Assembly (NCBI GenBank): GCA_044354985.1
Contig: JBIKYZ010000002.1
Span: 2,324 to 66,323, forward strand
Direction of reading: 5' to 3'
Length of the DNA stretch: 64,000 nt
Source: Pseudanabaena sp.
GTDB taxonomy: Bacteria > Cyanobacteriota > Cyanobacteriia > Pseudanabaenales > Pseudanabaenaceae
The translations under genes were made by a program, and so were the position numbers. Below the pieces are notes generated by a model. That model had not been told where the DNA came from and made no database searches. It was given only the letters and a program-made list of their open reading frames with translations. This document shows positions 33,028-61,508 of this stretch, piece by piece (position 1 is the stretch's first letter; every line of letters starts with the position of its first letter).

Positions 33028-33028
33028 G

Positions 33029-34270: not shown

Positions 34271-34558
34271 CTAAGCAAATACAGGTACAGATTTTTGGGC
34301 TTCAGTATTTTCTTGATAACTGCCGCGAATCTGAACATACTCATCTTCCAACAGAAAATCTTTCACCTTCTCATACTCCTGCGCCGAATAAACCACTTGA
34401 TAACCCTCAGTTGGGTCATAAAGCGTATAGCTTCCATCCACATCACCAACCAACATCAAAACATAGGGCAGATCAGAGCTAGGATCGACCCACATTTCAA
34501 TAAATTTCCAACTAGATAACTTCGCTTGGTTTTGTGCGTGGAATGACATGATATTCAC
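34271..34558 (-). CDS. Hypothetical small protein
   Basis: 95-aa ORF (alternative Met at 34549) bracketed by ~42-bp direct repeats. No family recognised. Confidence 0.3.
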   Translation of the reverse strand: MNIMSFHAQNQAKLSSWKFIEMWVDPSSDLPYVLMLVGDVDGSYTLYDPTEGYQVVYSAQEYEKVKDFLLEDEYVQIRGSYQENTEAQKSVPVFA

Positions 34559-34743
34559 CCTTAATAATTTTCATCTCTGCAAAATACAACGGCAATCGAG
34601 TCCCTTCTATAGTAAAGATTTCGGTGAATTAGGCGATCACACCTTACTTTCACAGAGATTAAAGATGCGATGGTATGTTGTGTTTGATGCGATCAGTTAC
34701 AGTGAAGATATACTTAGATATAGACCTGTAAAAGGTTGAAGTT

Positions 34744-34965
34744 ATGACTAGCTTACTATTACAAGCATTTGAAAAAGCACAATCCTTACCAGAATATCTA
34801 CAAGACGAATTTGCTGTCCAATTTCTCGAAGACATAGAAAGCGAAATGCGTTGGGTACAAACTCTATCTCAACCACAGCCAGCTAAGCTAGATCAACTTG
34901 CTACTAAAGCTTTAAATAACTCCGCAAATGGAAAAACCAAGGTTTTAGGTTTCGACCAGCTATGA
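34744..34965 (+). CDS. Putative type II antitoxin
   Basis: 73 aa. MTSLLLQAFEKAQSLPEYLQDEFAVQFLEDIESEMRW resembles cyanobacterial antitoxins paired with RelE/ParE-type toxins. ATGA overlap with the downstream toxin remnant. Confidence 0.5.
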   Translation: MTSLLLQAFEKAQSLPEYLQDEFAVQFLEDIESEMRWVQTLSQPQPAKLDQLATKALNNSANGKTKVLGFDQL

Positions 34966-35060
34966 GATCAGAGTTAGATGAAGAATTTATCAAACTTTTT
35001 GCCAAACTACCCGAACGAGTCCAAAAAAGAGGAGCGATCGCATTACATCTCAACCCTTAA
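34962..35060 (+). pseudogene. Truncated RelE/ParE-superfamily toxin remnant (32 codons)
   Basis: MRSELDEEFIKLFAKLPERVQKRGAIALHLNP* has the toxin N-terminal pattern (F.K.F.KLP..VQ) but stops after 32 aa, where it runs into the convergent ATPase gene. Confidence 0.45.
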
Positions 35061-43109: not shown

Positions 43110-43455
43110 CGCTTTGCGCTCAAATCCAAATTAATATAAACCCTAAAAGTGCTACTAAGCAAAGCTTTTAGGGTTTATATTGTGGATAGCTCGATCATTT
43201 TCATGAGTTTATGATTTTGATACTTACAAAAAATAATCAATCCAAAAAATGGCGGTGGGCGGGCTTAGCCCACCGCCATTTTTTGGATTGATTATTTTGT
43301 TATTGGAGTTGCCTTACGCTGTCAAAATCTCGGATCGACAAATGGCAGAAGATACAAAAGTTTGATATTACTGTGTTAAATTGTCCTGCTAAGTAGATGT
43401 TTCGTAATTTGATTGGGCATACAATAATCAGACTTCAATCTAGGCAAAAACTTGA

Positions 43456-44778
43456 ATGAACTTCGATCAATCATTAATACTAGAAAAAATTCGGCAACAG
43501 TTTGATAGTAGCCCCTATCCGCGTATACCTTTGGAACAGTCACCCAAAGATAACGCTTATCAGCTATACATCCATAATTTAGTTACTGCTTTTTATCGGC
43601 GCGATCGCCAAGTCATTGACACAACAGATAGATTGATCTTAGATGCGGGATGCGGATCTGGATATAAGTCTTTGATTTTGGCTGAAGCCAATCCTAATGC
43701 AAAAATTATTGGTGTGGATATATCGTCAGAGTCAGTGAAACTAGCTGAACAGAGGCTGAAATATCATGGTTTTGATAATGCTGAATTTCATTGCTTATCA
43801 ATTGAGGATTTGAGTGATCTAGGCTATCAGTTTGACTACATCAACTGCGATGAAACTTTGTATCTGATGCCTGATCCAGCGATCGCCCTAGCAGCAATGA
43901 AAGCTGTTCTAAAAGATGATGGTATTATTCGCGCAAATTTACATAGTGCTTTACAGAGACTGAGCTTCTACCGAGCGCAGCAAATGTTTACATTAATGGG
44001 AGTGATGGATGGGGACATTGGAGATCTAGAAATAGAGACTGTAATTGAAACGATGCAAGCCCTGAAAGATAACGTTAATCTCAAAGTACAAACTTGGGAT
44101 GCTAGTTTTTTGGGAGAAGCTGGCAAAGAGAAGATCTTAACGAATCAGTTATTACAAGGAGATAAGGGATTTGCGATCGCGGATCTTTTCTCAGCAATAA
44201 GAACGGTTGAACTAGAGTTTGTCAGTATGGTTAACTGGCGAGACTGGAATCTAAGAGAGCTTTTTAAAGAATCGGATAACTTGCCGTTAGTTTGGGAAAT
44301 GAGTTTACCCGATACAACCATTGAAGATCAGTTGAGGATGTATGAGCTAATTAATCCAATCCATCGCCTATTAGATTTTTGGTGTGGTCATTTCAGCCAA
44401 TCACCTCAGATGACATCTTTTGAAGAGTGGAATGAAGATGACTGGTATTCAGCAAGGGTATATCTACATCCACAATTAAAGACTCAACAATTTAGTGCAG
44501 ATTTGCAAAGTTGTGTGATGCAATGTCGTACAGTTAATTTGAGTCAACATTTATCTTTGGTCAAGCCAGTTGTAACCGTTGATAGCTCTATGGCGGCTTG
44601 CCTATTGCCTTTACTCGACTCTCCGCAAACTATTGCCACTTTGAGCGAATATTATGCAAAAATCAGACCAGTCAATCCGATCACTTTGCGATCGCAAGGT
44701 GTAGCCGAGGTGTTGCCGTTGGTGCAAAATACTATTTGCGATTTAGAAAGCCTCGGTTACTTGATGATAGACCAATAG
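43456..44778 (+). CDS. Class I SAM-dependent methyltransferase with unknown C-terminal domain
   Basis: Motif I ILDAGCGSGYKSLILAE, then IGVDIS and DYINCDETLYLMPD. Confidence 0.8.
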   Translation: MNFDQSLILEKIRQQFDSSPYPRIPLEQSPKDNAYQLYIHNLVTAFYRRDRQVIDTTDRLILDAGCGSGYKSLILAEANPNAKIIGVDISSESVKLAEQRLKYHGFDNAEFHCLSIEDLSDLGYQFDYINCDETLYLMPDPAIALAAMKAVLKDDGIIRANLHSALQRLSFYRAQQMFTLMGVMDGDIGDLEIETVIETMQALKDNVNLKVQTWDASFLGEAGKEKILTNQLLQGDKGFAIADLFSAIRTVELEFVSMVNWRDWNLRELFKESDNLPLVWEMSLPDTTIEDQLRMYELINPIHRLLDFWCGHFSQSPQMTSFEEWNEDDWYSARVYLHPQLKTQQFSADLQSCVMQCRTVNLSQHLSLVKPVVTVDSSMAACLLPLLDSPQTIATLSEYYAKIRPVNPITLRSQGVAEVLPLVQNTICDLESLGYLMIDQ

Positions 44779-44887
44779 TTTTGAAAACAAGGAAGTCGAT
44801 TTTTATGATGTGGCAAAGCCGCGCTATCAAAAATCGAGTTCCTTGTTTTCAGCCCTTACAAAAATTTGCCCCACTTATTTTGAAGGA

Positions 44888-45820
44888 ATGAAAACTGATA
44901 AACTTTTCTATCGCATCTTTCTATCACAACCTGATCTAATCTCAGAGTTAGTACCAGATATTCCTGCAAGCTGTGAGTTTGACTATAGTGCGCCCGTGGT
45001 CAAAGAGACTGAACTTCGACTAGATGGAGTACTCACGCCGATCTCTGACGATCTGAGATTGCCATTGGTATTCTTAGAAGCACAAATGCAAAGTGATGAT
45101 GATTTTTATGGTCGTTTTTTTGCAGGCATATTTCTTTATTTGCGACAGTATAAGGTTACTAGACCTTGGCGCGGATTGCTGGTTTTGCGCCGCCGTAGCC
45201 ATAACTTAGGGACTGATTTAGCTTATCAAGTTTTGCTAGGTACTTGGGTGCATCGACTTTACTTAGAGGATTTGATTGATATGGGGAATTTGAGCCCAAA
45301 CCTGTCTTTGTTAAGGCTGTTGGTTGTTTCAGATCAAGAAGTGAGTGAATCGGCTCAGGCGATATTGAGGAATAGTAATACGCCAGCAGAGTTTCGGATG
45401 CGGCTAGACTTAGTAGAGGCTATACTGATAAATAAATTTCCCCAGTTGAGTATTGAAGAGGTCAGACTGATGTTAAATCTTAAAGAGGCAGATATAACTC
45501 AAACACGTTTTTACCAAGAAGTTTTCCAAATCGGGCAGCAGGAAGGTCAGCAGATCGGTGGAGAGCTTGGTCGAAAAGTTGGGAGAAAGATTGGTCAAAA
45601 GATTGGGAGAAAGATTGGTCGCCAAGAGGGTCGCCAAGAGGGAGAAATTGAAATAGTGTTACGTCAGCTTTCCCGACGCTGTGGACAACTGTCGATCGCT
45701 CAACAAAAAAAGGTGCGATCGCTACAAATTAAAGACATCGAGAATCTTGGTGAGGCTTTACTAGATTTTAAGGGGATGGCTGATTTGGAGACTTGGTTGG
45801 ATAGTATGGCTAAGGTTTAG
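44888..45820 (+). CDS. Rpn-family recombination-promoting nuclease / putative PD-(D/E)xK transposase-like protein
   Basis: MKTDKLFYRIFLSQPDLISELV...RLDGVL...VFLEAQMQSDDDFYGRFF is typical of the cyanobacterial Rpn/DUF2887 type, with a DUF4351-like C-terminus. It contains the low-complexity run GRKVGRKIGQKIGRKIGRQEGRQEG. The longest ORF starts at 44810. Confidence 0.7.
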   Translation: MKTDKLFYRIFLSQPDLISELVPDIPASCEFDYSAPVVKETELRLDGVLTPISDDLRLPLVFLEAQMQSDDDFYGRFFAGIFLYLRQYKVTRPWRGLLVLRRRSHNLGTDLAYQVLLGTWVHRLYLEDLIDMGNLSPNLSLLRLLVVSDQEVSESAQAILRNSNTPAEFRMRLDLVEAILINKFPQLSIEEVRLMLNLKEADITQTRFYQEVFQIGQQEGQQIGGELGRKVGRKIGQKIGRKIGRQEGRQEGEIEIVLRQLSRRCGQLSIAQQKKVRSLQIKDIENLGEALLDFKGMADLETWLDSMAKV

Positions 45821-45987
45821 TTAGAGATGCGATCGCAAAATGTAGTTGAGATGTTATCGTTGTTCTAAAACACTATTGCTGATCTAGAGAACTTAGGCTA
45901 CTTGATGACAGATAAAGCCTAAGTACCTTGCATCTGTTTTTTAGATGAGGTTAAAAAGATTTTTATTAAAATAAAGACTCGGTAGGA

Positions 45988-46824
45988 TCAAGAAATATTC
46001 AAATAATCGTAAATTTCGTCTAGAGAGAAACACATTTTATTAATTGCCTGATATTTAGGTTCTCCTTCATTAACGCCATGAAAGGTTAAATAACCTCTTT
46101 CGTAAGCCCAGTCATTGAAGCATAGTCTAATGTGTAAACCTTCTTCTTCTAAAACAGAAGGTAGACTAAGAAAGAATTTCCTGTAAATACCAACATACTT
46201 ACTTTCACAGAGATATGCTTTGTTAAAGCCTATTGCCACGCATTGAAGATTTGGATTTGATTTAAGGTAGTCAAACATAGCTTGAGTGCAGCAGGCAGAA
46301 GCGATGTTGAATATGTCATCAAGGACAATTAGACCACCATTAGATAGGTATTTATATGATAGTTCTATGTCAGAGTAAACAGCATCATAGCTATGCTCAC
46401 CATCAATATGTACAAATCTAAATATGGGGTTATAGGCTCCTAATAATTGAGAATGTCTCTTGGCTACAATTCTAGAGTCAACTGGATAGGTGAGTATTCG
46501 ACTTTCATCAACCTCTGAAAATGCAGAGACAACTTGTTTAACTGCTTCGATATCTTGGTAGGGATCAAGTAAAAAAGCTCGTTCTTGGTTCTGTAAAGAG
46601 CAACATAAGAATGCAATAGTTGCTCCTTTAAGAACTCCGATCTCCAAAATATCCCCTTGGATATCATAAAGGATTTGTAAACCAAGTAACTGATCGAAGG
46701 TGTGCCACACTTGAAGGGTATTAATACCTTGATTTAATGGAAAAGTCTGTTGATGTTTTTGAATGAGACTCATTAATTTAATTGGGTAATTAGTTGAATA
46801 GTTTTTTAACTCTGCCATAATCAA
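45988..46824 (-). CDS. Class I SAM-dependent methyltransferase (Methyltransf_24-like)
   Basis: ILEIGVLKGATIAFL, HIDGEHSYDAVYSDIEL and GGLIVLDDI. Confidence 0.65.
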   Translation of the reverse strand: MIMAELKNYSTNYPIKLMSLIQKHQQTFPLNQGINTLQVWHTFDQLLGLQILYDIQGDILEIGVLKGATIAFLCCSLQNQERAFLLDPYQDIEAVKQVVSAFSEVDESRILTYPVDSRIVAKRHSQLLGAYNPIFRFVHIDGEHSYDAVYSDIELSYKYLSNGGLIVLDDIFNIASACCTQAMFDYLKSNPNLQCVAIGFNKAYLCESKYVGIYRKFFLSLPSVLEEEGLHIRLCFNDWAYERGYLTFHGVNEGEPKYQAINKMCFSLDEIYDYLNIS

Positions 46825-46842
46825 CGGACTATTAAGCTTAGC

Positions 46843-49041
46843 TTAGCAAGCTAACAACTCCGTTTTTCTTGCTTCAATAAACAAGTCGTAATCATATCGG
46901 TGAAAAGCATAGACATCAAGGTAATAGATTGTAACTTCTCCGCTTTGATAGCGATTACATTTTAAACAATGATTTAGATCATCAAATCTATCACGAAGAT
47001 TATAGTCAATACTGATTAGATAATTGCCAAAGTTATCATAGATTAGAAAGTGTGAATAGTCAGATTCTACTAACCTGTCTATAGTGCTGATGGCTTCATT
47101 TATACCACTCGATCTAAAGCTGATATCATATTCAAAACATATTACAGGTCGAATACTTTTTATAGTTTCTATAGAATCTAGGATAATTTCAAAATCAAAA
47201 CCGTCACAATCGATCTTAAGTAACTTAGGCTGACAGAATTGAGGATATGCGTCTAAAATTGATTTTAAACTCTTGAGCTTGATGTTGTTTTCGGGGCTTT
47301 CTGATGTAGTAGCACTTGTTATAGATGCTGTCCCCCCTTTACTCGATACGTTATCCAAACTAATTATTTGATCATCTTCGCCGATAAAGTAAGGAGCAAC
47401 TTGTATATTTCCAATAATAGAAGCATTGTGTTTTAGAAATGGAATAAAATCAGGATGTCCCTCTATACACAAGATAGGGACATTTACATACTTGTTTATT
47501 AATGCTGCGCTATCTCCGACATTTGCACCAATATCAATAGCTGTAGAGTTACTATACTTAGTAAATACAATTTTAGAAATATTTCCTAATACAGTGTCAT
47601 ATCTCTTCCAGCGACTTTGATATCTATCCAACATATGATCTATTGGTAAGAGGATTTCACAGTTAGCAACTTTATATTTTTTTGCTTGTGGTTGAGGTGT
47701 TTTCTCTTCTAAGAACCAATTACCAGTTTTCTGTAACATATATTTTTTATTCTGTAACCCTACAGTCCAGTTAGCATGAAATATCATCGGACTTGGCTGC
47801 CCAGACTGAATTGATGATAACTCTGGATCAGATACAGACATTAAGCTTGCTGACATTCCATTAGCAAATAGAAGTTCTGACAGAGGAAATATATTTGTGA
47901 ATAAATATGGGCTGGATTGAATAAGATGGTTGATGACTGTTTGATCGTGATATTCAGGGTTAGTTTGAATAAAGTGACTGTGAAGATTAGTCAAAGAATC
48001 CAGCAATCTATGAGAAAAATCATTATTCACGAAACTCATAAACCCCGTGCAGAGATGTGGTGGAAAGTTAGCAGTTCCCTCGGTTTGGATTGATAGAGAA
48101 TAATGTTTGCCGATTTGTCGCAACAGGGGAAGTGGATTTTGTCGCCATGCGATATCAACATCTGTATAGACTACTTTTTTCACTCCTTGATTTAGTAAAT
48201 GCTTAATGGCAATCCATTTAGAGAGAGTGAATTTACCAAATTCGCCAGTGCCATAGTTGTGATAGTTATTATTATTCTGTAAATCGATATTCTCAACTAT
48301 ATCCTCGATTGCTGTAATATTACCGATACCATATTGCGATCGCAGTTCTGATAGTTCTTCAATAGCAGATGATGGCGTGAATATCTCTATATATTGAGGA
48401 TCGATATTGCAATTTCTAATACTTACAATTGTATTCTCTACAAATTCCTTTAACCCTCCTGATACAACTAATAAGATTCGATAGTCGTTTAGTTTAGAGT
48501 CTGCTTGGATTTGATATAAAATCCCTGTCATGATTGCTAAGGCTTGCTTATTGCCATCACTTAATGTCAGTATTTCAGGTAGCTTAGTTTGTGCAAAGTT
48601 TTTCCAGATTTGCGAATGCCTAGGTAAATAGATCAATCCTAAGTCATTGTTTGAATCTGAACTCTGAAGAGATTCTGACAAGTATCTATAGGCAAGATCT
48701 TTTGCTTTATCTAATTCTCCTGTTAATACACAGACAATAGCAAGATGAGCTTTGCACAAAAGACTATTTGTAATGTCTATTCCTTTTTTCAGGGCTTCAA
48801 TTGCATACTCTAGATATAGCCCTTTCTCGTTAGAATCTTCACTATTGTCTGCGGCAATCAAAGCCATGACTGCAACATTGTTAAAATCTAGCGCTGATTT
48901 TGGCTCATTCCAGTTTGTGCCTTCGATGTCAATGTCTAAGCTGTCCAGAAAATCGATATTAAAGCAGCAAGACTCGACATACTGGCAGTACATCAAGGCT
49001 TCATCCATAGTTTCCATTTCTGATAGATAGTTGTCTAGCAT
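46843..49041 (-). CDS. Multidomain protein: TPR-like N-terminus, nucleotide-diphospho-sugar glycosyltransferase, FkbM-family methyltransferase
   Basis: The middle domain has a DxD context (VVYTDVDIAWRQNP). The C-terminal FkbM-type motifs are AIDIGANVGDSAALI and LLKIDCDGFDFEIL. Confidence 0.6.
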   Translation of the reverse strand: MLDNYLSEMETMDEALMYCQYVESCCFNIDFLDSLDIDIEGTNWNEPKSALDFNNVAVMALIAADNSEDSNEKGLYLEYAIEALKKGIDITNSLLCKAHLAIVCVLTGELDKAKDLAYRYLSESLQSSDSNNDLGLIYLPRHSQIWKNFAQTKLPEILTLSDGNKQALAIMTGILYQIQADSKLNDYRILLVVSGGLKEFVENTIVSIRNCNIDPQYIEIFTPSSAIEELSELRSQYGIGNITAIEDIVENIDLQNNNNYHNYGTGEFGKFTLSKWIAIKHLLNQGVKKVVYTDVDIAWRQNPLPLLRQIGKHYSLSIQTEGTANFPPHLCTGFMSFVNNDFSHRLLDSLTNLHSHFIQTNPEYHDQTVINHLIQSSPYLFTNIFPLSELLFANGMSASLMSVSDPELSSIQSGQPSPMIFHANWTVGLQNKKYMLQKTGNWFLEEKTPQPQAKKYKVANCEILLPIDHMLDRYQSRWKRYDTVLGNISKIVFTKYSNSTAIDIGANVGDSAALINKYVNVPILCIEGHPDFIPFLKHNASIIGNIQVAPYFIGEDDQIISLDNVSSKGGTASITSATTSESPENNIKLKSLKSILDAYPQFCQPKLLKIDCDGFDFEIILDSIETIKSIRPVICFEYDISFRSSGINEAISTIDRLVESDYSHFLIYDNFGNYLISIDYNLRDRFDDLNHCLKCNRYQSGEVTIYYLDVYAFHRYDYDLFIEARKTELLAC

Positions 49042-49321
49042 TAGTTGTAATTTCCTAGCTTTTCGCTGTAGATGTTCTAACGATGTAATGATTCTTCTGG
49101 TAAATTAGCTTTGCTTTTAGGAAAGTATGAAGCCAATTTTTGAAAATGTTGAACGTTTTATATTGATGCTTTTTTGCTATGAACTAAAACTGGCTTAATC
49201 ATTTGTTTAGCAGAAAATCTAGATTGAAAAAGCTGCTGGTCTTCAGATGGCAGGTTTAAAATTACTTCTATGAGTGAATCAACAAGTTGTACATTCATTG
49301 TTCTGTATCCAATTTACTGTT

Positions 49322-52300
49322 TTATCTAGACTCATCAAAAAGTTCTTGCAATAAATTATACATATCTTGTGCTAATTTTTTAGGATTCCAAAGCGGAGCC
49401 AGATTAGCAGGATCTTTAGAGTCAATCAATTTTTGCTTAATTGAATTTCTGAACTCTGGCTCTAAACCATACTTAACAGCCCATATCATATATTCTTCCC
49501 AATTATGGGCAATCCCTGCATCAATACCTAATGCTTGCAAGAAGGAATAGCCCATTCTAGCGAAGGATTGTTCGCCCACCAGTGTTACTACTGGCAAATT
49601 GAACCACAGGACTTCGAGATTGTGACTGCCTCCATTGTAGGGGTAGGAATCTAGGAAAACATCCGCGATCGCATAAATACCCCGATGTTCTTCTTCAGTT
49701 TTGTAACTGGGTAAAAATTTGACGCGATCGCTATCTATCCCAATCTCATCACAGATTTCGTTATAAATGCTGCTTATCACTTCACGATCACCACTACCTT
49801 TATGTAGTAGTACGGAATTAGGCACTTGCTGCAAAATGCTAATACAAGCTTTTGCACTATCACGGTTAAACTTACGTGCTGGAGCCGCATAGAGATAGGC
49901 AACTTGATCGGACGCTATGCCAAGTTTCTCTCTTTCAATGTCTCGATCAATTTCTATAGCCTCAAAGCCTGATACTGCCATATGAGCATCAGGTAATCGA
50001 AGTATTTTTTCTACATAATGCTCATCTACGCCTTCAGGATGGGTGAAGCGATCGCCGAGCCAATAGTTATCAGGAGAAATAAATGGTGCATCAAAACCGA
50101 GCCAAGATAGCCGAATTGAGGCTAATTGCTTTCGACAGAGAATATGGGTGTTGAGGGGGATCGTCACCGAATCAAGGTCAATGATTACATCTAGTTGGTC
50201 TTCAGTAATGTCTGAAACTAATCGTTTAATCCTTCCATCAAAATTAAATTTTTCATTTTCATACCAATAGTGTCTTTCAGCAATTTGTTCAAACTTTTCT
50301 GTATGTTCATCAGGCTGAATCGTACCAGTAGTATATAAATATATCTGAGGAGTAATTTTTGATAGTTCTCTGATTACATCAAGGCTGCACCAACCTACAG
50401 GATGACGAGCAAAGTGAGGTGATACAAAACCGATTTTGAGAGGTCTATCACCTGCTGATATTTCACGACTTTTATCGTATGAATTACCGATCTCTAATTT
50501 GGACTTAATAACTCTATCCTGATAGAGAGAACCAATAAGTTTAAAGAGACTGGTATTTAAATTTCGATTATCTCGTAAGCTAGAAAGTATAAATATAAAA
50601 GAATTATATAGAACTTCCACCTCAACAGCTTCTAAGCTGTTAAAATATTTGTATAAGAATTCCTCTAACTCAGGCAATTTAACAATTGCAATATCTGCTA
50701 GTCCTGAATGAATGTAGTTAGAGATAAAGTTGACCGTAGGACGAACCTTTTCTTTCTCATGGCAAGATTCTAGAAATTGATCTGCGAGTTTTCGACGTAA
50801 TTTAAAATTGTGATGTAGAGAGTTATTGCTGTCAGATAAGATATCATTATTGAAATTCCAATAGGCATCGACAAGATGAAAGTCTAAATGCAAAGCTTTA
50901 TTGTAACAGAAGGCTGCATCTTCCATTTGTTTTGCTTTAGCGAAGGTATAGCCGAGATTGCAATAAACCTTAGCATCATTAGGATTTATTGCTAAAGCTG
51001 ATTGTAAACAAGCAATCGCTCCTTCTAGTTCGCCATATTCAGTTAAGCTTGCTCCTAAACCAATTAAAGCTGTAACTGATTCTGAGTTAATCTCTAGAGC
51101 CGTCTGATAAGCCGTAATCGATAGTTCCCATTCACATTGCTTAAAGAAAGCACTACCCATAGCCAGAGGAATGTCAATGTCTTCAGGATTAATAGCAAAG
51201 GCTTGATCATAGGTAAAGATCGCCTCATCTAGTTTATCCTGACTGGCTAACACCAGTCCCAAGTTGTAGAGAGCATTACCATGGGCAGGATCAAGCTCAA
51301 TCGTAATTTTGAATGACTCAATTGCTTGATCAAGTTGACCTGATTGGAACTGAGCAATGCCCATGTTGTAATGGGCATCTATATATTCTGGATGGAGAGA
51401 TATTGCCGTTTGCCAACAGGCGATCGCAGCATCAAGTTTGTCTTTTTGAGCTAAACGAATCGCGTCTTGGTTTCGTAATTCAGCTTCAGCGATGAACAAT
51501 TCACGATCGGCAACAGGATCGATCTCAATGTCAGGGTCTTCAGAATCTAGCCAAATTTGCCACATCTGCTCATAGGCAGATTCCATATCTTTTGTAAACT
51601 GTCGCGAGTTCCAAAGTGGTGCAGTTTGCTTGCCCTGACGCAATTTGAGAATCACTTGATTTCTCAAATCAATATCAGTTCCCAATCTAATTCCCCATTC
51701 CACATATTCTTCATCTGTCCATGCAATGCCTTCAGTAATGCCTGCATTGATCATCATTGTATAGCTATTTCGCGATGCAAACTGTTCACCTACCCGCGTC
51801 ACCATCGGAATCCCCATCCATAGGGTTTCGAGAGTATGAGTTGCACCGTTGTATGGATAGGTATCAAGAACGACATCTGCAAGTATCAAATTAGCCCTAT
51901 GTTCTGCTTCGCTATTAGTAATCGGCAAAAAGCGTAAGCGTTCTTTTTCCACTCCTTCTGTTTCTGCCATTTGATAGAAGAACTCTTTGAGCGATTCTTG
52001 ATCGCCCATACTTTTAAGAACTAAATAGCTATTGGGAACTGATTTAACAATTTGCATCTGTAAGCGTATCGTGTCAGGATGACGCTTCATCGATGCTTGT
52101 GCGCTGAAATAGATAACGGCATCAGCAGGAATGTCGAGAGTATCGCGGCGAACTGTGGGAGTGGATGATTCAAAGCCATCAACAGCAATATAGGTCTGTG
52201 GCAATCGCCAAATTTTTTCCGTATAGTATTCGTCCGCATCTTCAGGCAAAACATAGGGATCGGCAATAAAATAGTCTATATTTTGAAGACCAACTGCGTC

Positions 52301-53794
52301 CCAACCAAGCCATGTTACATGTATTGGAGCTGTCTTAAGACTCGATAAGGCTGTGCCGTATGCACTAGTAATGCTGTCTAAGTCAATAAGTATATCAATC
52401 CCATCGCATTGTATTTGATTGGCTAACGATACAATATCTTTCTGAGAATTAGTATTAGCCTTGTAAAATTGTTCTATGTACCAAGATCTCAGTAAGTCAC
52501 TATCTTTGGACTCCCCGATATATCCATATAACTCAAATCTCTGACGATCATGATTTTGGATCAGCCATCTCGCTAAGTAGCCGACTGAGTGTCTTCTAAA
52601 ACAAGTCGATATATAACCAATTTTGATAGGGAGACCCGACCTATAATACTTTTTCCTAAGAAATAATCTTTTTTTGTAATTAGCTATATTCTTATTGAGT
52701 TCTAATTCAATTTTTTGAATTGCTAATTGACGTACATCTCTAAATAAATTATGTCGAATTTTGGGATTATCACTAAAATACTGCGAATAAAATCCCGTTG
52801 TCATTAGATAAAGAAAAGCCTCGTCAGTGGATATCTGATCTATTGACTGTGAAGAAGTTAGCTGCGAAATACTATCTTCATACTTTCCATAGGATTGACT
52901 CGCTTCTTTCCAATAACTACAGTTAACAATCAAGGCTCTAGTCAGCCACTCATAGGCAAAAACTCGATCTAAAAGGCGGCGATTTTGGGATAACTGCTCT
53001 AGTTCTCTAGCAATTAAGACTGCTTTATGGCTGTCTTTTCTTATGTATAAATCAATCTTCTGTTTGTATAAGTTAAAATTTTCGCTATTAATCTTTAATC
53101 CGATTTCCACACATTGAATAGCATCATCCTGTCTTTTGTTTTCATTTAAAAAGATAGTAAGATCACACAGCTTATTTGCTATTTCTAATCTATACTCATT
53201 ATGAAGTAAGCATATATTTTCAAATGCTTCTAGAGTCAAATAATCATAATCAGAAAGCTTGATAAATACTGTTTCTAATAGTCGAGAGATGACAGAAAAC
53301 TTTAGTCGATTGAAGCTTTGTAATTTATGTGCATTGAGCAAGTCTAGGTCTAACAGATTTTGAGAAGTAAAAGACTCTGATTTGATCAATAAAATAATTA
53401 TGCAAATTCGGTTGTCAAGATTATGTGAGTTTATCTCTAGTAAGCAATTACGTATCACTAGAGAATTTTGGTAATCTTTTAGTTCCTCAAGCCTATTTGA
53501 TTCTATCTCTAAAATATCATTAAGTTCTTGATTGAGTAAATCAACATCACTATGCTCTACTTTTATCTCTTTAATGAAACTGAGCCAAGTCGTCTTAGCT
53601 TGTTCTACCTTTCCTTGAAGTAGCTGGCATATGCCCAGATACCAGTGATTTGAGTTGGTTTTAGCGTCTATCTCTATAAGTTGCTCATATAGCGCTAAAG
53701 ATTCTTCATACCGTCTTTCAGAAAAATATGTACTAGCCTGCTCTACAAGTTTTTGAAATTGCGCTTTATTGTCAAAAAATATTGGGCTTAGCAT
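49322..53794 (-). CDS. Giant TPR protein with two GT41 (SPINDLY/O-GlcNAc-transferase-like) catalytic modules
   Basis: Architecture is TPR - GT41 - TPR - GT41. Each module has (L)PIKIGY(F)S..F.RH.VG and ...LD(T/S)YPYNG(A/G)(T/S)H(T/N)LE(T/V)LW..(I/L)P(M/V)VT..GEQ... followed by ...APLWN... . TPR consensus repeats lie at aa ~790-990. Confidence 0.8.
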   Translation of the reverse strand: MLSPIFFDNKAQFQKLVEQASTYFSERRYEESLALYEQLIEIDAKTNSNHWYLGICQLLQGKVEQAKTTWLSFIKEIKVEHSDVDLLNQELNDILEIESNRLEELKDYQNSLVIRNCLLEINSHNLDNRICIIILLIKSESFTSQNLLDLDLLNAHKLQSFNRLKFSVISRLLETVFIKLSDYDYLTLEAFENICLLHNEYRLEIANKLCDLTIFLNENKRQDDAIQCVEIGLKINSENFNLYKQKIDLYIRKDSHKAVLIARELEQLSQNRRLLDRVFAYEWLTRALIVNCSYWKEASQSYGKYEDSISQLTSSQSIDQISTDEAFLYLMTTGFYSQYFSDNPKIRHNLFRDVRQLAIQKIELELNKNIANYKKRLFLRKKYYRSGLPIKIGYISTCFRRHSVGYLARWLIQNHDRQRFELYGYIGESKDSDLLRSWYIEQFYKANTNSQKDIVSLANQIQCDGIDILIDLDSITSAYGTALSSLKTAPIHVTWLGWDAVGLQNIDYFIADPYVLPEDADEYYTEKIWRLPQTYIAVDGFESSTPTVRRDTLDIPADAVIYFSAQASMKRHPDTIRLQMQIVKSVPNSYLVLKSMGDQESLKEFFYQMAETEGVEKERLRFLPITNSEAEHRANLILADVVLDTYPYNGATHTLETLWMGIPMVTRVGEQFASRNSYTMMINAGITEGIAWTDEEYVEWGIRLGTDIDLRNQVILKLRQGKQTAPLWNSRQFTKDMESAYEQMWQIWLDSEDPDIEIDPVADRELFIAEAELRNQDAIRLAQKDKLDAAIACWQTAISLHPEYIDAHYNMGIAQFQSGQLDQAIESFKITIELDPAHGNALYNLGLVLASQDKLDEAIFTYDQAFAINPEDIDIPLAMGSAFFKQCEWELSITAYQTALEINSESVTALIGLGASLTEYGELEGAIACLQSALAINPNDAKVYCNLGYTFAKAKQMEDAAFCYNKALHLDFHLVDAYWNFNNDILSDSNNSLHHNFKLRRKLADQFLESCHEKEKVRPTVNFISNYIHSGLADIAIVKLPELEEFLYKYFNSLEAVEVEVLYNSFIFILSSLRDNRNLNTSLFKLIGSLYQDRVIKSKLEIGNSYDKSREISAGDRPLKIGFVSPHFARHPVGWCSLDVIRELSKITPQIYLYTTGTIQPDEHTEKFEQIAERHYWYENEKFNFDGRIKRLVSDITEDQLDVIIDLDSVTIPLNTHILCRKQLASIRLSWLGFDAPFISPDNYWLGDRFTHPEGVDEHYVEKILRLPDAHMAVSGFEAIEIDRDIEREKLGIASDQVAYLYAAPARKFNRDSAKACISILQQVPNSVLLHKGSGDREVISSIYNEICDEIGIDSDRVKFLPSYKTEEEHRGIYAIADVFLDSYPYNGGSHNLEVLWFNLPVVTLVGEQSFARMGYSFLQALGIDAGIAHNWEEYMIWAVKYGLEPEFRNSIKQKLIDSKDPANLAPLWNPKKLAQDMYNLLQELFDESR

Positions 53795-53830
53795 TAATTT
53801 GAAAAAGACTGGATATTATATTGATAATAT

Positions 53831-53868
53831 AAAAACGAGTAGAGAAACAATTAAAAATTTCTCTACTC
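53831..53868 (-). terminator. Hairpin (terminator/attenuator) between the pilin gene and the GT41 gene
   Basis: On the minus strand, GAGTAGAGAAA-TTTTTAATTG-TTTCTCTACTC-GTTTTT lies 31 nt after the pilin stop. Confidence 0.6.
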
Positions 53869-53898
53869 ATTAAATCTGATTTAGACTACTACTAATTA

Positions 53899-54477
53899 CT
53901 AGCTAACTCCTACAAAGTTAGCAGTAGCACACGAAGGCGCAGCATTAGTAGCTAGAGTAAATGCTTGACCAATTGCAGTTGCGTCTATGGAAATACCAGC
54001 ATTAACAGGGGGAAGTTTTGCTTCACATAAGCCAGCCAAGGTAGTCGCTTCATTGGAACCAGGAGGGGTAGCAAGGTTGACTGCACCTGCATAAACTTTA
54101 ATGCTAGGTTCAAGAGGAACTGCTACGCTATAAGCATTAGCGGCTGTACCAGTCACACCTCGGCTAGAGCCTGATGTTGAGTACACATAGTTTTCAGTGG
54201 TTTGAGCAATACCAATCGCTAAGGTTGCAAGGTCAGGACCGAAGCGTTGCTTTTCTAGGTAGTAGGCTTGTTGAGCGCGGTTTGCAGAACCAACATAGGT
54301 CTTAGCTTCAGATTGACGAGCTTTTGCAGCTTGGTTAAGGAAAGAAGGAAGTGCGATCGCAGCAAGAATACCGATGATGATGATAACAACGAGAAGTTCG
54401 ATCAGGGTAAAGCCCTTTTCGCCATTCTTCTTGTTGAGCATGTGTTGGATGAGCTTGGTCTTGAATTCAGATTTCAT
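53899..54477 (-). CDS. pilA: Type IV pilin (PilA-like)
   Basis: Prepilin leader ending ...GEKG/FTLIELLVVIIIIGILAAIALPSF. The C-terminal region has two Cys. Confidence 0.85.
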   Translation of the reverse strand: MKSEFKTKLIQHMLNKKNGEKGFTLIELLVVIIIIGILAAIALPSFLNQAAKARQSEAKTYVGSANRAQQAYYLEKQRFGPDLATLAIGIAQTTENYVYSTSGSSRGVTGTAANAYSVAVPLEPSIKVYAGAVNLATPPGSNEATTLAGLCEAKLPPVNAGISIDATAIGQAFTLATNAAPSCATANFVGVS

Positions 54478-54611
54478 AATTCTTTATTCCCGTGTATGTC
54501 AAGAAAGTTAACTTGTTGGCTTGTGAAAGTAACTTACCCATAAAAAAACAGGATGCTATCACTCTGACTAAAAATATTTTTGTGAGTTTCATCTCTTTTA
54601 CAACTGACTCA

Positions 54612-55184
54612 CTATTCCTGCAAAGAAAATCCTGTAGGGCATACCATCGTCTGTTCTCCTCCATTCAATGCTCCAGGAGGGATAGGACTAATATTTGGTG
54701 TATTCCCAATACAAAAGATGGTATCGATCCGCACTATTCCTGGAATACCTACTACTCCAACAAAAGCTTTGAGGTATGGAGACGTAGGTACTGCCACATT
54801 AGTAATTATTTGCTTGGGTTGCTGAGGCGTAAAGTTTCCATCCACACTACCCGCCAAAGCGCTGTAAGTATAGGAAGAAGAAGCAGTATCTACCCCTAGT
54901 CCCAAGTCGCCAATATTACTGGTAAATGTTCTTTTCTCTAGGTAGTATGCTTGCTGCAAGCGGCTCATAGTACCAATATATGCCTTCGCCTCGGCAAATC
55001 TTGCCTTGTCTGCTTGACTTAAAAATGATGGTAGCGCGATCGCAGCCAGCAAACCAATAATAATGATTACCACCAATAACTCAATCAGTGTAAAACCTTG
55101 TTCTTTATGGTTTACGTTACTAAAATGGCGATCGCGTAGCCATAAGCTGATGATATATTCCAATTCCAAATTATTAAAGTTCAC
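54612..55184 (-). CDS. Type IV pilin (second paralogue)
   Basis: ...KEQG/FTLIELLVVIIIIGLLAAIALPSFLSQADKARFAEAK. Unusually long (30-aa) predicted leader, and two C-terminal Cys. Confidence 0.8.
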   Translation of the reverse strand: MNFNNLELEYIISLWLRDRHFSNVNHKEQGFTLIELLVVIIIIGLLAAIALPSFLSQADKARFAEAKAYIGTMSRLQQAYYLEKRTFTSNIGDLGLGVDTASSSYTYSALAGSVDGNFTPQQPKQIITNVAVPTSPYLKAFVGVVGIPGIVRIDTIFCIGNTPNISPIPPGALNGGEQTMVCPTGFSLQE

Positions 55185-55250: not shown

Positions 55251-55832
55251 TTAAACCTCTCCAAAATATTCCAAAATATTAAGAATTCTCGTTTTTAGAT
55301 TGATCACATCTCGCGCATTACAAAACACATTAGTCTTGAGACGGCGATCGCTACATAGCCCAATCACTAAAACATTAATATGCTCAATATATGCAGCATT
55401 CAGTGCAGCTTTGCCCTCCTCATAAACAAGCGGTATACCTGGTTGAATAATGGCGAGATTTTGAAAAAATTGATTGGTACTAGCAAAACAATGATCTATG
55501 TATTGACTTAGCAAATTAAAATCCACATCGGTCTTGCCTTGAATATCGCCGAGGGTGTAAGCAATCATGTCAATCGGAGTGCGATCGCTAATAAAAGGTC
55601 TAGCCGATTCTTGCCAAACCTGCTCGGCAGCATCCAAAACATGATTCTGCACAAACAGCCTTGTTTGAAAGTCCATTGGTTCCGCAGGATCTAAGCCAAG
55701 CTGTGCAAAAACTTGGCTGGTTGTAGTGCGGACAAAGGGGATATTTAGGTGCGAGGATATCGCGATCGCTAATGTTGTTTTGCCAGTCCGATGTGCGCCA
55801 CAGAGTCCTAGATTGCCTTCAAGTTTAAACAT
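55251..55832 (-). CDS. Small P-loop NTPase / nucleotide-kinase-like protein
   Basis: Walker A GAHRTGKTT at residues 12-20, 193 aa. 8-nt overlap with the upstream Uma2 gene. Confidence 0.6.
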   Translation of the reverse strand: MFKLEGNLGLCGAHRTGKTTLAIAISSHLNIPFVRTTTSQVFAQLGLDPAEPMDFQTRLFVQNHVLDAAEQVWQESARPFISDRTPIDMIAYTLGDIQGKTDVDFNLLSQYIDHCFASTNQFFQNLAIIQPGIPLVYEEGKAALNAAYIEHINVLVIGLCSDRRLKTNVFCNARDVINLKTRILNILEYFGEV

Positions 55833-56688
55833 CGTCTGGATCGATACCTAAAGCTTGTAAACGCTCAGCAAGACGATTAGCACGTAGACTTTCCTGCTCA
55901 GCACGTAGACTTTCCTGCTCGGCGCGTAGACTTTCCTGCTCGGCGCGTAGACTTTCCTGCTCAGCACGTAGGCTTTCTTGCTCAGCACGTAGACTTTCTT
56001 GTTCAGCGCGTTGCTGATGTGTTTCAGCACGTCTACGCTCTTGGGCGGTGCGTTGCTGTTCTTGCCAAACCTGGATTTCTGATTGCTGTAAACGTTGGCT
56101 TAGTTCCACAGGCGACAAAAATCTCTGACCGTCGGGACGCGAGATGATTAAATCCTGTCCGATTGCCCAATCAAATCTAATTCCTAACAATGGACTAACC
56201 CAATTCAGCATTGATGGAATTTGGACGAGGCGATCGCCAACTCGCTGCCAGCCTTCTAAGATCAGGTCATCAGGATCGTAAATGTAATATTCCTGAACCC
56301 CATAGGTTTGATAAAAGTCAAACTTATCTTCAAGGGAATCTTGACCACGCCGATCTTTATTACTGGGTGACAGGATCTCAAAAACGACCTGTGGGGCAAT
56401 ATTATCCTCTAGCCATTGTTTATAAGAACCCCTACGACCTTTGGGACGACCTAGCGCTACCATTACATCAGGTGCAACTCGTTTTTGAGTACGGCGCACA
56501 GGATACCAAAGTAAATCTCCCGCTACAAATACATTTGGGTCATCGGCATACATGATCTCTAGATTTTCTTTGATGATCACAATCCAGCGATATTGTTCGG
56601 TATTGTCAGCCATAGGATTGCCATCACTGTCAGGATAATCGATCTCTGGAGCGATCGCTTCTTCAGATGTTAGAGGTTGCAGAGTCAT
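55825..56688 (-). CDS. Uma2 (DUF820) family endonuclease with a C-terminal heptad-repeat extension
   Basis: EIDYPDSDGNPMADNTEQYRWIVIIKENLE..., FEILSPSN and QEYYIYDP are Uma2 PD-(D/E)xK hallmarks. The C-terminus carries (AEQESLR)x6. Start chosen at MTLQPLTSEE (GAGGG SD); the longest ORF reaches 56784. Confidence 0.75.
   Translation of the reverse strand: MTLQPLTSEEAIAPEIDYPDSDGNPMADNTEQYRWIVIIKENLEIMYADDPNVFVAGDLLWYPVRRTQKRVAPDVMVALGRPKGRRGSYKQWLEDNIAPQVVFEILSPSNKDRRGQDSLEDKFDFYQTYGVQEYYIYDPDDLILEGWQRVGDRLVQIPSMLNWVSPLLGIRFDWAIGQDLIISRPDGQRFLSPVELSQRLQQSEIQVWQEQQRTAQERRRAETHQQRAEQESLRAEQESLRAEQESLRAEQESLRAEQESLRAEQESLRANRLAERLQALGIDPDDV
55880..56005 (-). repeat. Six tandem 21-bp repeats inside the Uma2 CDS
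   Basis: The unit GCACGTAGACTTTCCTGCTCA (plus strand) occurs six times with 0-3 substitutions per unit and encodes AEQESLR heptads. Confidence 0.9.
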
Positions 56689-56783
56689 GGATTTACCCTC
56701 ACCGAAACCTGTGCATGATTTATCCATTAAAACATAATCGCTAAACATGAAAGACGATGTTTTGTCGCCTTTCATGTTTAGCA

Positions 56784-58049
56784 TTAAGCACCCAATACCC
56801 GCTTAGCTCTGGCTAAATAGGACTGACGATCAGCTAAGCCATTTGTGCCGCCGTTGATGATACGGGTAATAGTAAGGACATCATCGCGATCGGCATGTCC
56901 ATTAAGTTTCCGAGTATCCCAAAACCAGCCTGCACTGAGACAGGCTAGATCGAAATCTCCTAAACGCTGAGGATTGTTGATCAAATCCACGCCCAAGGCT
57001 CGACCACAATCAAGATAGTTGGCTCTTCCCGTAACTTGGATCAAGCCACGCCCCTTAAACCTGACACCGTCGCCAGCCTGAGTATTACCAAGATCTCTTC
57101 TTCCTTCATAGGCTGCACCAGAGGCATATTCCTCGTTAGTGTTAAATCCATCGCTTTCATGTCCCAATTGAGCGAGGAAATGCGCTTTACGCAGAGGTGT
57201 CGTGATTGCGTAACGCTGCATTGTGTTATTCAAGTGGGGCAGCAATTTTTCAAGGCGATCACGTCGGGAATAAGGTGCGATCGCACTCAGTTGTTCTTGA
57301 GTAATCAACCCAGAAGCTTTAGTTAGATTGGTTTCAGTAGTTCGGGGGTATAAGCCCTCATATGGCTCTTGATCGAGACGACGGGGAGGCAGATTATTGA
57401 GAATCCGAATCGTGCTATCAACTAGTACATCCTTGGGGTTGAAATCATCTTTAAGTCCAGTAATCAATTGATCTAAGCGCCGCGCTGCTAATTTGCGGTG
57501 CTCAGTCAGATTTGGCGCTTGGTAAAGCCCTTCATAGGGCTTGCGTAAAATAGGGCGCAAAGTTAAGCCACTCATCACTCTGATTAAGTCATCAATTCGA
57601 CCGTCAGCACTATTATGTTTTGGGTCAGTGATCTGACCGATCGCTGCTACTAATGTCTGTGCCGCTTGTTTGCGCCATGTTGCCAAATCCGCCGCAGGGA
57701 AAAGTCCCGCATAGGGCGATCGCCCTGTTGGACGTGCGGGTAAATTTCGTAAAAAGCGAATCAAATCATCGATCGCCCCATCAAAAACGCTCCCTTCAAC
57801 ATCGGGAATCTTGGGCACGGAAGCCTGAAGAGTTAATGCCGCCCGACTGCGCCATGTTGGTAAATCTGCCGCAGGCAAAATACCTGCATAGGGCTGTCGA
57901 GTCTCTGTACGTGCGGGTAAGTTATTTAACACGCGCACGAGATCGTCCACCAGTCCATCTTTTTCATTGATCGTACTGCCGACAATTTTGGGAACCAGAA
58001 ATCCAAGGGTTGCGGCTGCTTGCGATCGCCAAATCTCAACTTGTTTCAT
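56784..58049 (-). CDS. Glycoside hydrolase family 19 (chitinase/lysozyme-like) with four ~59-aa N-terminal repeats
   Basis: C-terminal AHFLAQLGHESDGFNTNEEYASGAAYEGRRDLGNTQAGDGVRFKGRGLIQVTGRANY is the GH19 catalytic signature. The N-terminus has four repeats of WR..AA.TL...(D)G.(I/V)DDLIR.L..LP.R....PY.GL. Confidence 0.8.
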   Translation of the reverse strand: MKQVEIWRSQAAATLGFLVPKIVGSTINEKDGLVDDLVRVLNNLPARTETRQPYAGILPAADLPTWRSRAALTLQASVPKIPDVEGSVFDGAIDDLIRFLRNLPARPTGRSPYAGLFPAADLATWRKQAAQTLVAAIGQITDPKHNSADGRIDDLIRVMSGLTLRPILRKPYEGLYQAPNLTEHRKLAARRLDQLITGLKDDFNPKDVLVDSTIRILNNLPPRRLDQEPYEGLYPRTTETNLTKASGLITQEQLSAIAPYSRRDRLEKLLPHLNNTMQRYAITTPLRKAHFLAQLGHESDGFNTNEEYASGAAYEGRRDLGNTQAGDGVRFKGRGLIQVTGRANYLDCGRALGVDLINNPQRLGDFDLACLSAGWFWDTRKLNGHADRDDVLTITRIINGGTNGLADRQSYLARAKRVLGA

Positions 58050-61115: not shown

Positions 61116-61508
61116 TTAATTACCTTCGGCACTGGCTAGTTTAAGTCGAAACAGTTTACTGTAGAAGATTTGGGGGAAATCAACATAACCCTTGTCGCGA
61201 ATATTGGAGACAACTTCAATTAAATAGCCAACAAATTCTGAATTTTCTAATGTCATTTCATAGCTCATGTCAGCATCACCCTCGAAGGTCAAGCGACACA
61301 AAGCCAGATCGGACGGCAAGTTAGCCACGCGCCATACAGCCATAAAAGAAATAGGCGAGCTTCCTTCTACATGACGCTCGCCTGTAATTTCACCTTGTTT
61401 ATATAGGGAAATCGCATAGGGGAGAGCTTGACGCTTGTTTGGCTCTCGATAGTAGGGCATGTAGATTGAAACTTCTTGCGGTGGAGCAGCTTTAAGTTCG
61501 ATCGCCAT
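61116..61508 (-). CDS. Hypothetical protein
   Basis: 130-aa ORF. No family recognised. First gene after a triple-hairpin terminator array. Confidence 0.4.
   Translation of the reverse strand: MAIELKAAPPQEVSIYMPYYREPNKRQALPYAISLYKQGEITGERHVEGSSPISFMAVWRVANLPSDLALCRLTFEGDADMSYEMTLENSEFVGYLIEVVSNIRDKGYVDFPQIFYSKLFRLKLASAEGN

Follow-up and report, generated by a model that had tools for sequence, protein, structure and literature searches.

A GT41 gene block beside the type IV pilin genes of Pseudanabaena sp.: a version of the cyanobacterial pilA–ogt locus with a probable role in pilin modification

A window of 64,000 nt from a metagenome-assembled genome of Pseudanabaena sp., which is the whole stretch of DNA analyzed here, contains a block of glycosyltransferase and methyltransferase genes directly downstream of two tandem pilin genes. 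Sequence comparison supports well that this block is the form which the known cyanobacterial pilA–ogt locus takes in Pseudanabaena. The block most likely encodes cytoplasmic enzymes that modify the pilin. An earlier note on this DNA, made from the letters alone, had proposed a protein-directed pilin modification system, and this is still the best reading, on the basis of the pilin adjacency of related genes, the catalytic residues and the fusions of accessory domains to GT41. Four aspects seem to be new: the fusion of two GT41 lineages in one protein, the exchange of the cassette between strains, the recurrent FkbM and glycosyltransferase partners, and the association with a methyltransferase of 440 amino acids (aa), here called MT440. 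The proposed mechanism was derived from homology and synteny, and the confidence in its single steps is much below that for the block as a whole. All coordinates are those of the whole window, and the cassette genes are all on the minus strand. The open reading frames (ORFs) listed in the earlier note were all found on that strand at the coordinates it gave.

For a survey of the locus, a profile built on the 1490-aa protein encoded next to the pilins was run against genomes, one for each species, and the best 80 of 564 loci were compared. In 77 of the 80 loci, the same strand carried a pilin homologue at a distance of up to 1.5 kb upstream; two of the three exceptions were located at contig ends. 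The pilin–ogt adjacency spans several cyanobacterial orders; the question raised in the earlier note, whether orthologous GT41 genes neighbour pilins elsewhere, can thereby be answered in the affirmative. An ORF with an FkbM domain was present on the 3' side of ogt in 29 loci and on the 5' side in none of the 80, with equal amounts of sequence on each side. The surveyed FkbM ORFs were often fused to GT4 domains or to a helical N-terminal domain of the type found in the 732-aa protein of the window. In addition, fusions in a single polypeptide were observed between GT41, PF03407 and FkbM, between GT41 and FkbM, between GT41 and PF03407, and between GT41 and other methyltransferases, which is good evidence that these domains serve one pathway. 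In Pseudanabaena sp. ELA645, a single strand carries pilin, pilin, MT440, GT41, GT41-PF03407 and FkbM-GT4 genes. The window itself displays the pilA–ogt layout, with a gene of the OgtA type directly 3' of a major-pilin-like gene on the same strand, and the same was found in P. minima.

The 1490-aa protein, GT41x2, matched Glyco_transf_41 at 3e-77 (260.5 bits, cut-off 25) in four stretches that make up two full modules. It had been described in the earlier note as a TPR protein with two GT41 modules, and this description agrees with the two complete modules and the TPRs at aa 780-970. Human OGT, SPINDLY, TtOGT and XcOGT were recovered by GT41x2 at 1e-23 to 1e-45. The residues H402 and K570 in module 1, and H1131 and K1308 in module 2, were invariant in 15 full-length homologues, and these His/Lys pairs align to H218 and K388 of XcOGT and to K842 of human OGT. 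As judged from these alignments, the catalytic His and Lys are kept in both modules.

The two halves of GT41x2 have different relatives. Module 1 was 54-66% identical to many cyanobacterial OgtA-type proteins, and the single-module Ogt of Nostoc, Microcoleus, Fischerella, Coleofasciculus and other genera aligned to aa 18-750 with approximately 45% identity, so that the first half of GT41x2 can be regarded as orthologous to the pilA-linked Ogt. Its N-terminal domain, with weak TPR_7 and ARM_TT21 matches in aa 14-86 only, is presumed to be the substrate-recognition region. Module 2 shared 35% identity with module 1 and 45-50% with GT41 proteins rich in TPRs from Microcoleaceae and Limnospira, and in the region preceding it (aa 761-1110) the identity to the TPR part of free-standing GT41 proteins (about 1066 aa) was 28-29%. 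A tandem duplication was considered as the origin of the two modules and was ruled out by the 35% identity and the different clades; the identity value and the distinct lineages indicate that GT41x2 is a fusion of two paralogous lineages. Full-length homologues had 1468-1528 aa and 40-88% identity, and those with a named source came from Pseudanabaena, Pseudanabaenaceae and close relatives. According to these comparisons, an OgtA-type unit is fused to a second, TPR-rich GT41 lineage, and this fusion has been retained throughout Pseudanabaenaceae.

Two or three GT41 units per pilin locus were also observed, independently, in several other lineages (loci L089, L033, L047, L084, L010 and L007/L009). 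The routes to this arrangement were tandem OgtA-type genes, a GT41-GT-A fusion, or a single unit together with a double one. Tandem OgtA-type genes were found at L033, at L047 and on contig L089, which encodes the MT440 protein of Synechococcus sp. PCC 7502, and the GT41-GT-A fusion is that of strain ELA645. The repeated occurrence of such loci suggests that one GT41 activity on the pilin is often not enough. L089 was evaluated as an unfused precursor of the GT41x2 fusion and rejected, because its two GT41 genes both belong with module 1.

The 732-aa protein encoded after GT41x2 showed Pfam matches to Nucleotid_trans (PF03407, aa 255-433, 5.6e-15) and FkbM (aa 503-638). The FkbM domain scored 71.8 bits with TIGR01444 (cut-off 37.7) and 34 bits with PF05050 (cut-off 22.7), and we infer that its substrate is a sugar hydroxyl. 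From the earlier description of this protein as a TPR/glycosyltransferase/FkbM fusion, the glycosyltransferase and FkbM parts were retained and the TPR part was dropped, since the N-terminal domain, helical in the model, gave no Pfam TPR match. In the AlphaFold2 model, the GT-A domain (aa 186-445) reached pLDDT values of 85-95 and the N-terminal domain was all-helical, while the FkbM domain stayed below 50. A Foldseek search with the GT-A domain returned XXYLT1, LARGE1, glycogenin, LgtC and GlyE at about 1e-7, and UGGT as well. Several of these structural relatives (XXYLT1, GlyE and glycogenin) extend glycans that are attached to proteins. The DxD motif, D294-V-D296, was invariant. On the grounds of sequence and model, the domain is assigned to the retaining glycosyltransferases of GT8/GT77-like type. 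Homologues of the 732-aa protein formed 24 clusters only, all Pseudanabaena-type or metagenomic, and some of them were fused to GT41.

The last gene of the cassette had been listed as a 278-aa S-adenosylmethionine (SAM) methyltransferase. The family holds, and the length is probably 261 aa, with M18 as the true start (45988-46773), because the homologue in locus L082 has 261 aa and the form with a TTG start is not on record. The 261-aa protein was 88% identical to that homologue, which is encoded at the same position. NCBIfam gave no specific name for the 278-aa protein, the AAA_28 protein or MT440.

MT440 is encoded past the 3' end of the cassette, to the left of the block described in the earlier note. 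In 46 of the 80 surveyed loci, a homologue immediately precedes pilA and has the same orientation, and in 4 it lies downstream and is convergent (50 of 80 in total). When the search was started from MT440, its homologue adjoined pilin and GT41 genes in two of the three genomes examined. The protein is uncharacterised and was 55-65% identical across cyanobacterial orders. In the structure search, the top full-length matches were Rv2067c and the Rickettsia enzymes PKMT1/2 (2.5e-11 to 1e-9), with a root-mean-square deviation (rmsd) of about 14 Å and a TM-score of about 0.35. The profile search recovered Rv2067c at 2.9e-15 and PKMT2 at 6.9e-14, mostly over the SAM domain, and an uncharacterised archaeal protein (3mgg) ranked above them. 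Judging from sequence and model, the closest characterised relatives of MT440 are bacterial protein-lysine methyltransferases. The PilA1 pilin of Synechocystis is methylated on lysine, and a 2026 paper assigns this activity to Sll0171, which is unrelated to MT440. The role of MT440 as a pilin methyltransferase is for this reason a hypothesis only, and the protein is regarded as a candidate for the third pilin-modifying enzyme.

Both pilin ORFs carry N_methyl and Pilin_GH domains in Pfam, in agreement with the two tandem pilin genes of the earlier note, and the Ser/Thr-rich strings that it had quoted are present in both translations. The sequences KG/FTLIELLVV or QG/FTLIELLVV (the slash as in Table 1), the N_methyl domain and TIGR02532 identify them as type IVa pilins, and their hydrophobic segments scored 3.1-3.2. 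The upstream pilin was 93% identical to the P. minima gene with a synonymous divergence (dS) of 0.45, in line with the flanking genes, and by this comparison the gene is conserved together with the flank. In pilA, the leader and the α1 helix are conserved and the head domain (aa 76-192) is variable. The head contains a Ser/Thr-rich loop (aa 99-113) and the pair Cys151-Cys183, both of which cysteines were invariant in an alignment of nine alleles. In the same alignment, identity to the window pilin was 85-100% in aa 1-75 (91-100% for the closer alleles) and 34-94% in the head.

The hairpin that had been reported between pilA and the GT41 gene is present; it begins 28 nt past the pilA stop codon, in an intergenic region of 104 nt. 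Each of the ten Pseudanabaena loci has a strong hairpin, followed by a T-rich stretch, at the corresponding place between the two genes, the T-rich stretch being weak in one or two of them and the stem sequences being unrelated. The element resembles an intrinsic terminator. A promoter scan of the pilA–GT41 gap gave 30 matches against 34.8 expected from shuffled sequence, that is, no excess.

The genes on both sides of the block (GH19, Uma2, AAA_28, the upstream pilin and MT440) were 91-96% identical at the amino acid level to those of P. minima, "Phormidium tenue" FACHB-1050 and the metagenome-assembled genome M085S1. Compared with the same three genomes, identity was 91-100% in pilA aa 1-75, 46-70% in the pilA head, 27-34% in the GT41 N-terminal domain and 64-82% in the GT41 catalytic domains. 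The N-terminal domain of GT41x2, with a GC content of 0.323, had no match at the DNA level, and its dS was saturated. Relative to P. minima, the cassette was 34-78% identical in amino acids, and dS rose from 0.15-0.45 in the flanks to 1.0-1.8 or saturation in the block, three to six times the flank values. Within pilA, dS was 0.15 in the N-terminal part and 1.3 in the head. The ratio dN/dS was 0.02-0.36 throughout flanks and block, which on this comparison are under purifying selection. Positive selection as the cause of the divergence was discarded, given this ratio and the fact that dS is what rises. Raised dS combined with low dN/dS argues that the block is an old functional allele, swapped in by recombination, and neither decaying nor evolving fast.

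The accessory slot behind the GT41 gene also differs: it is empty in FACHB-1050, it holds two FkbM genes in P. minima, and it holds the 732-aa and 261-aa genes in the window. The latter two genes are absent from both P. minima and FACHB-1050. The same four-gene cassette was found on an independent metagenome contig with 83-96% identity. Within the locus, divergence is highest in the pilin head and in the GT41 N-terminal domain next to it. As to whether the glycosyltransferase block co-varies with pilin type, a comparison suggested by the earlier note, the divergence is indeed shared, and it is not separable from linkage within one recombining block.

The composition of the block could be explained in another way, namely by the recent acquisition of a foreign island whose AT-richness and HIP1 poverty come from a donor outside the lineage. 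The observations behind this explanation were reproduced. The GC content was 0.364 in the block against 0.424 outside, and at third codon positions 0.28-0.31 against 0.35-0.41 in the flanking genes, so the block is more AT-rich, as the earlier note had stated. Its counts of the HIP1 octamer GCGATCGC were exact as well: 12 sites lie in the first 3 kb of the window, which holds 110 in total (1.72 per kb), and five in 45837-54352 (48336, 49665, 49724, 50048 and 51420), where about 14.6 are expected (Poisson P of about 0.004, a post hoc estimate). The block is the HIP1-poorest 8.5-kb interval in the window; the sampled intervals had a median count of 14 sites, and none had fewer than 6. Pointing in the same direction, the closest sequenced relatives lack the 732-aa and 261-aa genes, the dS of the block is far above that of the flanks, and a repeat scar and a DUF2887 gene are located at the left edge. 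Nevertheless, a two-module GT41 gene occupies the same position in every Pseudanabaena locus examined, its named full-length homologues (40-88%) all belong to Pseudanabaenaceae or close relatives, and the homologues of the 732-aa protein have no source beyond Pseudanabaena-type or metagenomic sequences. The GT41 gene has a GC content of 0.36-0.39 in most relatives (0.41-0.42 in the two most distant, L007 and L009) and is mostly HIP1-poor there too, so that the composition characterises the gene family and does not point to a recent import into the lineage. Two HIP1-free regions with normal GC, 3.9 and 4.3 kb long, were also observed at 14487-18427 (accD and dnaK) and 23636-27974 (psbC and psbD); since these deserts cover conserved core genes, HIP1 scarcity alone is no mark of foreign DNA. 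Composition as sufficient evidence for a foreign origin was ruled out by the low-GC relatives and the core-gene deserts. No integrase was found in the genomic-island test of the locus. The pattern fits an exchange of old alleles within the family, a foreign origin is considered unlikely, and the comparatively recent acquisition proposed in the earlier note is not supported, given the presence of the low-GC two-module gene at the same position throughout Pseudanabaenaceae.

Two further explanations concern the target of the enzymes. GT41x2 could be mainly a regulatory or general O-glycosyltransferase of intracellular proteins, such as pilus motor and assembly factors or transcription regulators, with the pilA adjacency reflecting co-regulation. 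In its favour, the free-standing relatives of module 2 adjoin rpiA or other housekeeping genes and not pilins (two contexts), a terminator parts pilA from the enzyme gene, and the enzymes are cytoplasmic, the pilin head being exported. In Synechococcus elongatus, moreover, the loss of ogt is described as pleiotropic, with altered production and sensing of a biofilm inhibitor (PMC9306852). Against this, the mass shift of S. elongatus PilA and its N-acetylglucosamine (GlcNAc) lectin signal are lost without Ogt or in the K445A variant, the pilin–ogt adjacency extends over 77 of 80 loci and several orders, and divergence peaks in the pilin head and the GT41 N-terminal domain, as would be seen in an enzyme–substrate pair, unlike in a conserved regulator. 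We attribute a low probability to the intracellular target. It is very improbable that the enzymes build or decorate an extracellular polysaccharide or lipopolysaccharide secreted with the pilus machinery, with no protein being modified. FkbM and GT-A/GT4 domains are indeed common in O-antigen and exopolysaccharide clusters, and a P. minima relative weakly matched RfbT of Vibrio cholerae. However, Pfam and membrane-segment prediction detected no flippase, polymerase, ABC exporter or membrane-anchored priming transferase in the block, and no membrane segment or signal sequence was predicted in its enzymes, which together speak for cytoplasmic protein-directed chemistry and against polysaccharide synthesis. 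The accessory domains are fused to GT41 itself, and GT41 is, to our knowledge, a protein-modifying family, which also counts against a polysaccharide product.

Returning to pilin modification by cytoplasmic enzymes, the following sequence of steps is proposed. The pilA gene would be transcribed strongly, with most transcripts stopped at the hairpin, and read-through or a weak internal promoter would provide a low expression of the enzymes. The pilin would be modified before or during export. The OgtA-type half of GT41x2 may recognise it through the variable N-terminal helical domain and move a first sugar from a nucleotide-sugar to Ser/Thr, probably in the loop at aa 99-113. The second GT41 unit, with its own TPRs, could serve further sites, a different sugar or a second substrate. 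The GT-A domain of the 732-aa protein may then add a second, α-linked sugar, after which the FkbM domain and the TylF-like methyltransferase would O-methylate the glycan. More speculatively, the pilin protein as such could be a methylation substrate of MT440. In the population, pilin head, GT41 gene and accessory slot would act as a single allele, exchanged by recombination between the 5' part of pilA, which is conserved, and the MT440 3' end, by which strains would gain differing pilus surfaces.

Several points weigh against this interpretation. The 80 loci are those most similar to the query, so the adjacency count describes the OgtA clade and not all GT41 genes. Because the relatives of module 2 are not pilin-linked, this module may have other targets. 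At the positions aligned to H920-T921-T922 of human OGT, module 1 has A-T-H and module 2 has G-S-H, and no sugar donor is assignable from the sequence. The AlphaFold2 models are of moderate quality (mean pLDDT of 63 and 72), and the structural superposition of MT440 is loose, with a high rmsd. The co-variation of pilin head and GT41 N-terminal domain is not distinguishable from linkage in a recombining block, and with a terminator-like hairpin in between, co-transcription of pilA and the GT41 gene is not assured. Finally, the cytoplasmic glycosylation of the head of a Sec-exported pilin needs a timing mechanism, and none has yet been demonstrated anywhere.

A broader model is put forward only tentatively, and we regard it as rather doubtful. 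The locus would be a multi-allelic "pilus glyco-type" locus of Pseudanabaena, made up of the pilin head, the recognition domain of a two-headed GT41 and a swappable slot for extending and O-methylating enzymes, shuffled by recombination via 5' pilA and 3' MT440. It would represent a GT41-based cytoplasmic analogue of O-antigen or pilin-group loci, possibly driven by phages or grazers, with MT440 as a dedicated protein-methyltransferase of the pilin.

The type IV pili of cyanobacteria drive motility, flocculation, buoyancy, DNA uptake and phage adsorption, and Pseudanabaena is common in freshwater blooms. If the cassette model is true, near-identical strains would show chemically different pilus surfaces, and phage host range, aggregation and strain typing would be affected. 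With variable N-terminal domains paired with variable pilin heads, the locus offers a natural experiment on the recognition between GT41 and pilin, and it bears on why cyanobacteria repeatedly assemble two GT41 units at one pilin locus. MT440 provides a concrete candidate for a pilin methylation activity.

The positions of the features are collected in Table 1. The degenerate copy of the MT440 gene end stops 76 nt from the methyltransferase gene end at 45988, and the same junction was found in locus L005; it looks like a scar left by recombination or insertion at the border of the variable slot. The DUF2887/DUF4351 gene probably lies outside the modification pathway, and its position relative to MT440 differs in loci L004 and L032.

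Table 1 Features of the pilin-adjacent block and its left edge in the 64,000-nt window
Feature	Position	Strand	Remarks
MT440, 440-aa class I SAM methyltransferase	43456-44778	+	convergent with the cassette
DUF2887/DUF4351 gene	44810-45820	+	Pfam; 85-nt repeats on both sides
Degenerate repeat of the 3'-terminal 85 nt of the MT440 gene	45828-45912	+	75% identical to 44687-44771; in-frame stop
SAM methyltransferase, Methyltransf_24/TylF type	45988-46824	-	Pfam
732-aa three-domain protein	46843-49041	-	helical N-domain about aa 40-185, GT-A aa 186-445, FkbM about aa 500-640
GT41x2 aa 1111-1490 and stop codon, catalytic module 2	49322-50464	-	XcOGT match 5e-23
GT41x2 aa 761-1110, TPR array (aa 780-970) and linker of the second unit	50465-51514	-	TPR_1, TPR_2, TPR_11
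GT41x2 aa 381-760, catalytic module 1, OgtA clade	51515-52654	-	human OGT match 4e-45
GT41x2 aa 1-380, N-domain of the OgtA-type unit	52655-53794	-	TPR-like at start; hypervariable
Terminator-like hairpin	53834-53871	-	pilA–GT41 intergenic region; T-run after a 15-bp stem with an 8-nt loop
pilA, major-pilin-like, 192 aa	53899-54477	-	N_methyl; Pilin_GH 1.8e-23
Upstream pilin, PilA2-like, 190 aa	54612-55184	-	GTG start; N_methyl and Pilin_GH; G/FTLIE motif

Other observations were made around the block. In P. minima and FACHB-1050, DNA matching 23-3463 of the window sits just past MT440 and ctaA/ctaB in the opposite relative orientation, which indicates that 40 kb or more were inverted or rearranged, one breakpoint being near 43300, directly left of MT440. 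A perfect 31-nt inverted repeat (43230-43298) is located at this breakpoint, and the sole result of an Rfam search of 43-56 kb, below threshold, fell on this hairpin. Within the Uma2-family gene (55825-56784), a 21-nt tandem repeat at 55859-55998 consists of six to seven copies and codes for AEQESLR heptads; the orthologue in P. minima has 297 aa against 319 aa here, which suggests copy-number variation. About 6 kb upstream of the pilins, a 130-aa ORF (61116-61508) was 94% identical to a P. minima gene with a T4P_EbsA domain, EbsA being a pilus-assembly factor. The four ORFs between this EbsA-like ORF and the GH19 gene gave no Pfam match. A second low-GC stretch (0.357-0.371) was observed at 32000-35000, with HIP1 sites clustered at its edges and a gene with a NucS-like endonuclease domain at 33029-34168.

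Among known systems is that of S. elongatus PCC 7942, where the TPR-GT41 protein Ogt is encoded beside pilA, and where Ogt and its Lys445 are needed for the PilA mass shift, the reactivity with GlcNAc lectin and normal piliation (PMC9306852). Ogt-dependent glycosylation of the pilin has been demonstrated for S. elongatus only. In the same work, ogt adjoined pilin genes in 77 of 201 cyanobacterial genomes (38%), and the pilA–ogt link is stated as general knowledge in a 2025 review (PMC12288463). That no GT41-based pilin glycosylation had been characterised is contradicted by these two sources; only the fused two-module form, for which the earlier note knew of no characterised system, is uncharacterised. 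The block resembles the S. elongatus locus (Ogt, Synpcc7942_0051; PilA, 0048/0049) in a cytoplasmic protein with TPR and GT41 parts beside major pilins and in the catalytic Lys. It differs in that S. elongatus Ogt has one GT41 unit, and a second lineage and accessory genes of the GT-A, FkbM and TylF types are not described there. The orthology of the window gene to S. elongatus Ogt is based on the literature and on Nostoc-type loci. Nostoc punctiforme OgtA (Npun_F0677) shares the order pilA then ogt, and Nostoc-type loci are about 45% identical to aa 18-750 of GT41x2. As cited in PMC9306852, loss of OgtA in Nostoc blocks PilA accumulation and motility. In contrast to the window, OgtA has a single module, and the MT440 gene of Nostocales lies upstream of pilA on the same strand instead of being convergent.

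In Microcystis aeruginosa, a GT41 protein and an FkbM protein are likewise encoded beside an O-glycosylated filament subunit, in the CT-pilus cluster (MrpC BH695_0841, OGT BH695_0839, FkbM BH695_0838). On Ser/Thr, the pilus subunit bears ten O-linked monosaccharides with masses of 160 and 174 Da, and the authors suggest that these residues are processed O-GlcNAc (PMC12397347). By our own arithmetic, their masses match mono- and di-methyl deoxyhexose. This precedent of OGT with FkbM makes the methylated sugar put forward in the earlier note a reasonable idea. The difference is that the CT-pilus is a non-type-IV tubular pilus of unrelated fold, with no second GT41 and no GT-A domain.

Strains of Pseudomonas aeruginosa differ in a cassette 3' of pilA, in which a pilin allele is coupled to the gene of its modifying enzyme (TfpO/PilO and TfpW, in combination with pilins of groups I and IV). 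The joint inheritance of pilin allele and enzyme gene in a strain-variable cassette is the likeness to the Pseudanabaena locus, whereas the P. aeruginosa enzymes are periplasmic membrane oligosaccharyl- or arabinosyl-transferases with lipid-linked donors, and those of the window are predicted to be soluble, cytoplasmic and dependent on nucleotide-sugars. Cytoplasmic glycosylation of exported proteins is found in Listeria (GmaR, GT41-like, acting on flagellin), in Haemophilus (HMW1C, GT41, acting on HMW1) and in streptococci (GtfA/B with GlyE and others, acting on serine-rich repeat proteins). These systems involve other substrates and export routes, with no type IV pilins and no methyltransferases. 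GlyE was among the structural matches of the 732-aa protein, and the likeness lies in the order of the steps, in which a first sugar is attached in the cytoplasm and is then extended by a GT8-type GT-A enzyme before export.

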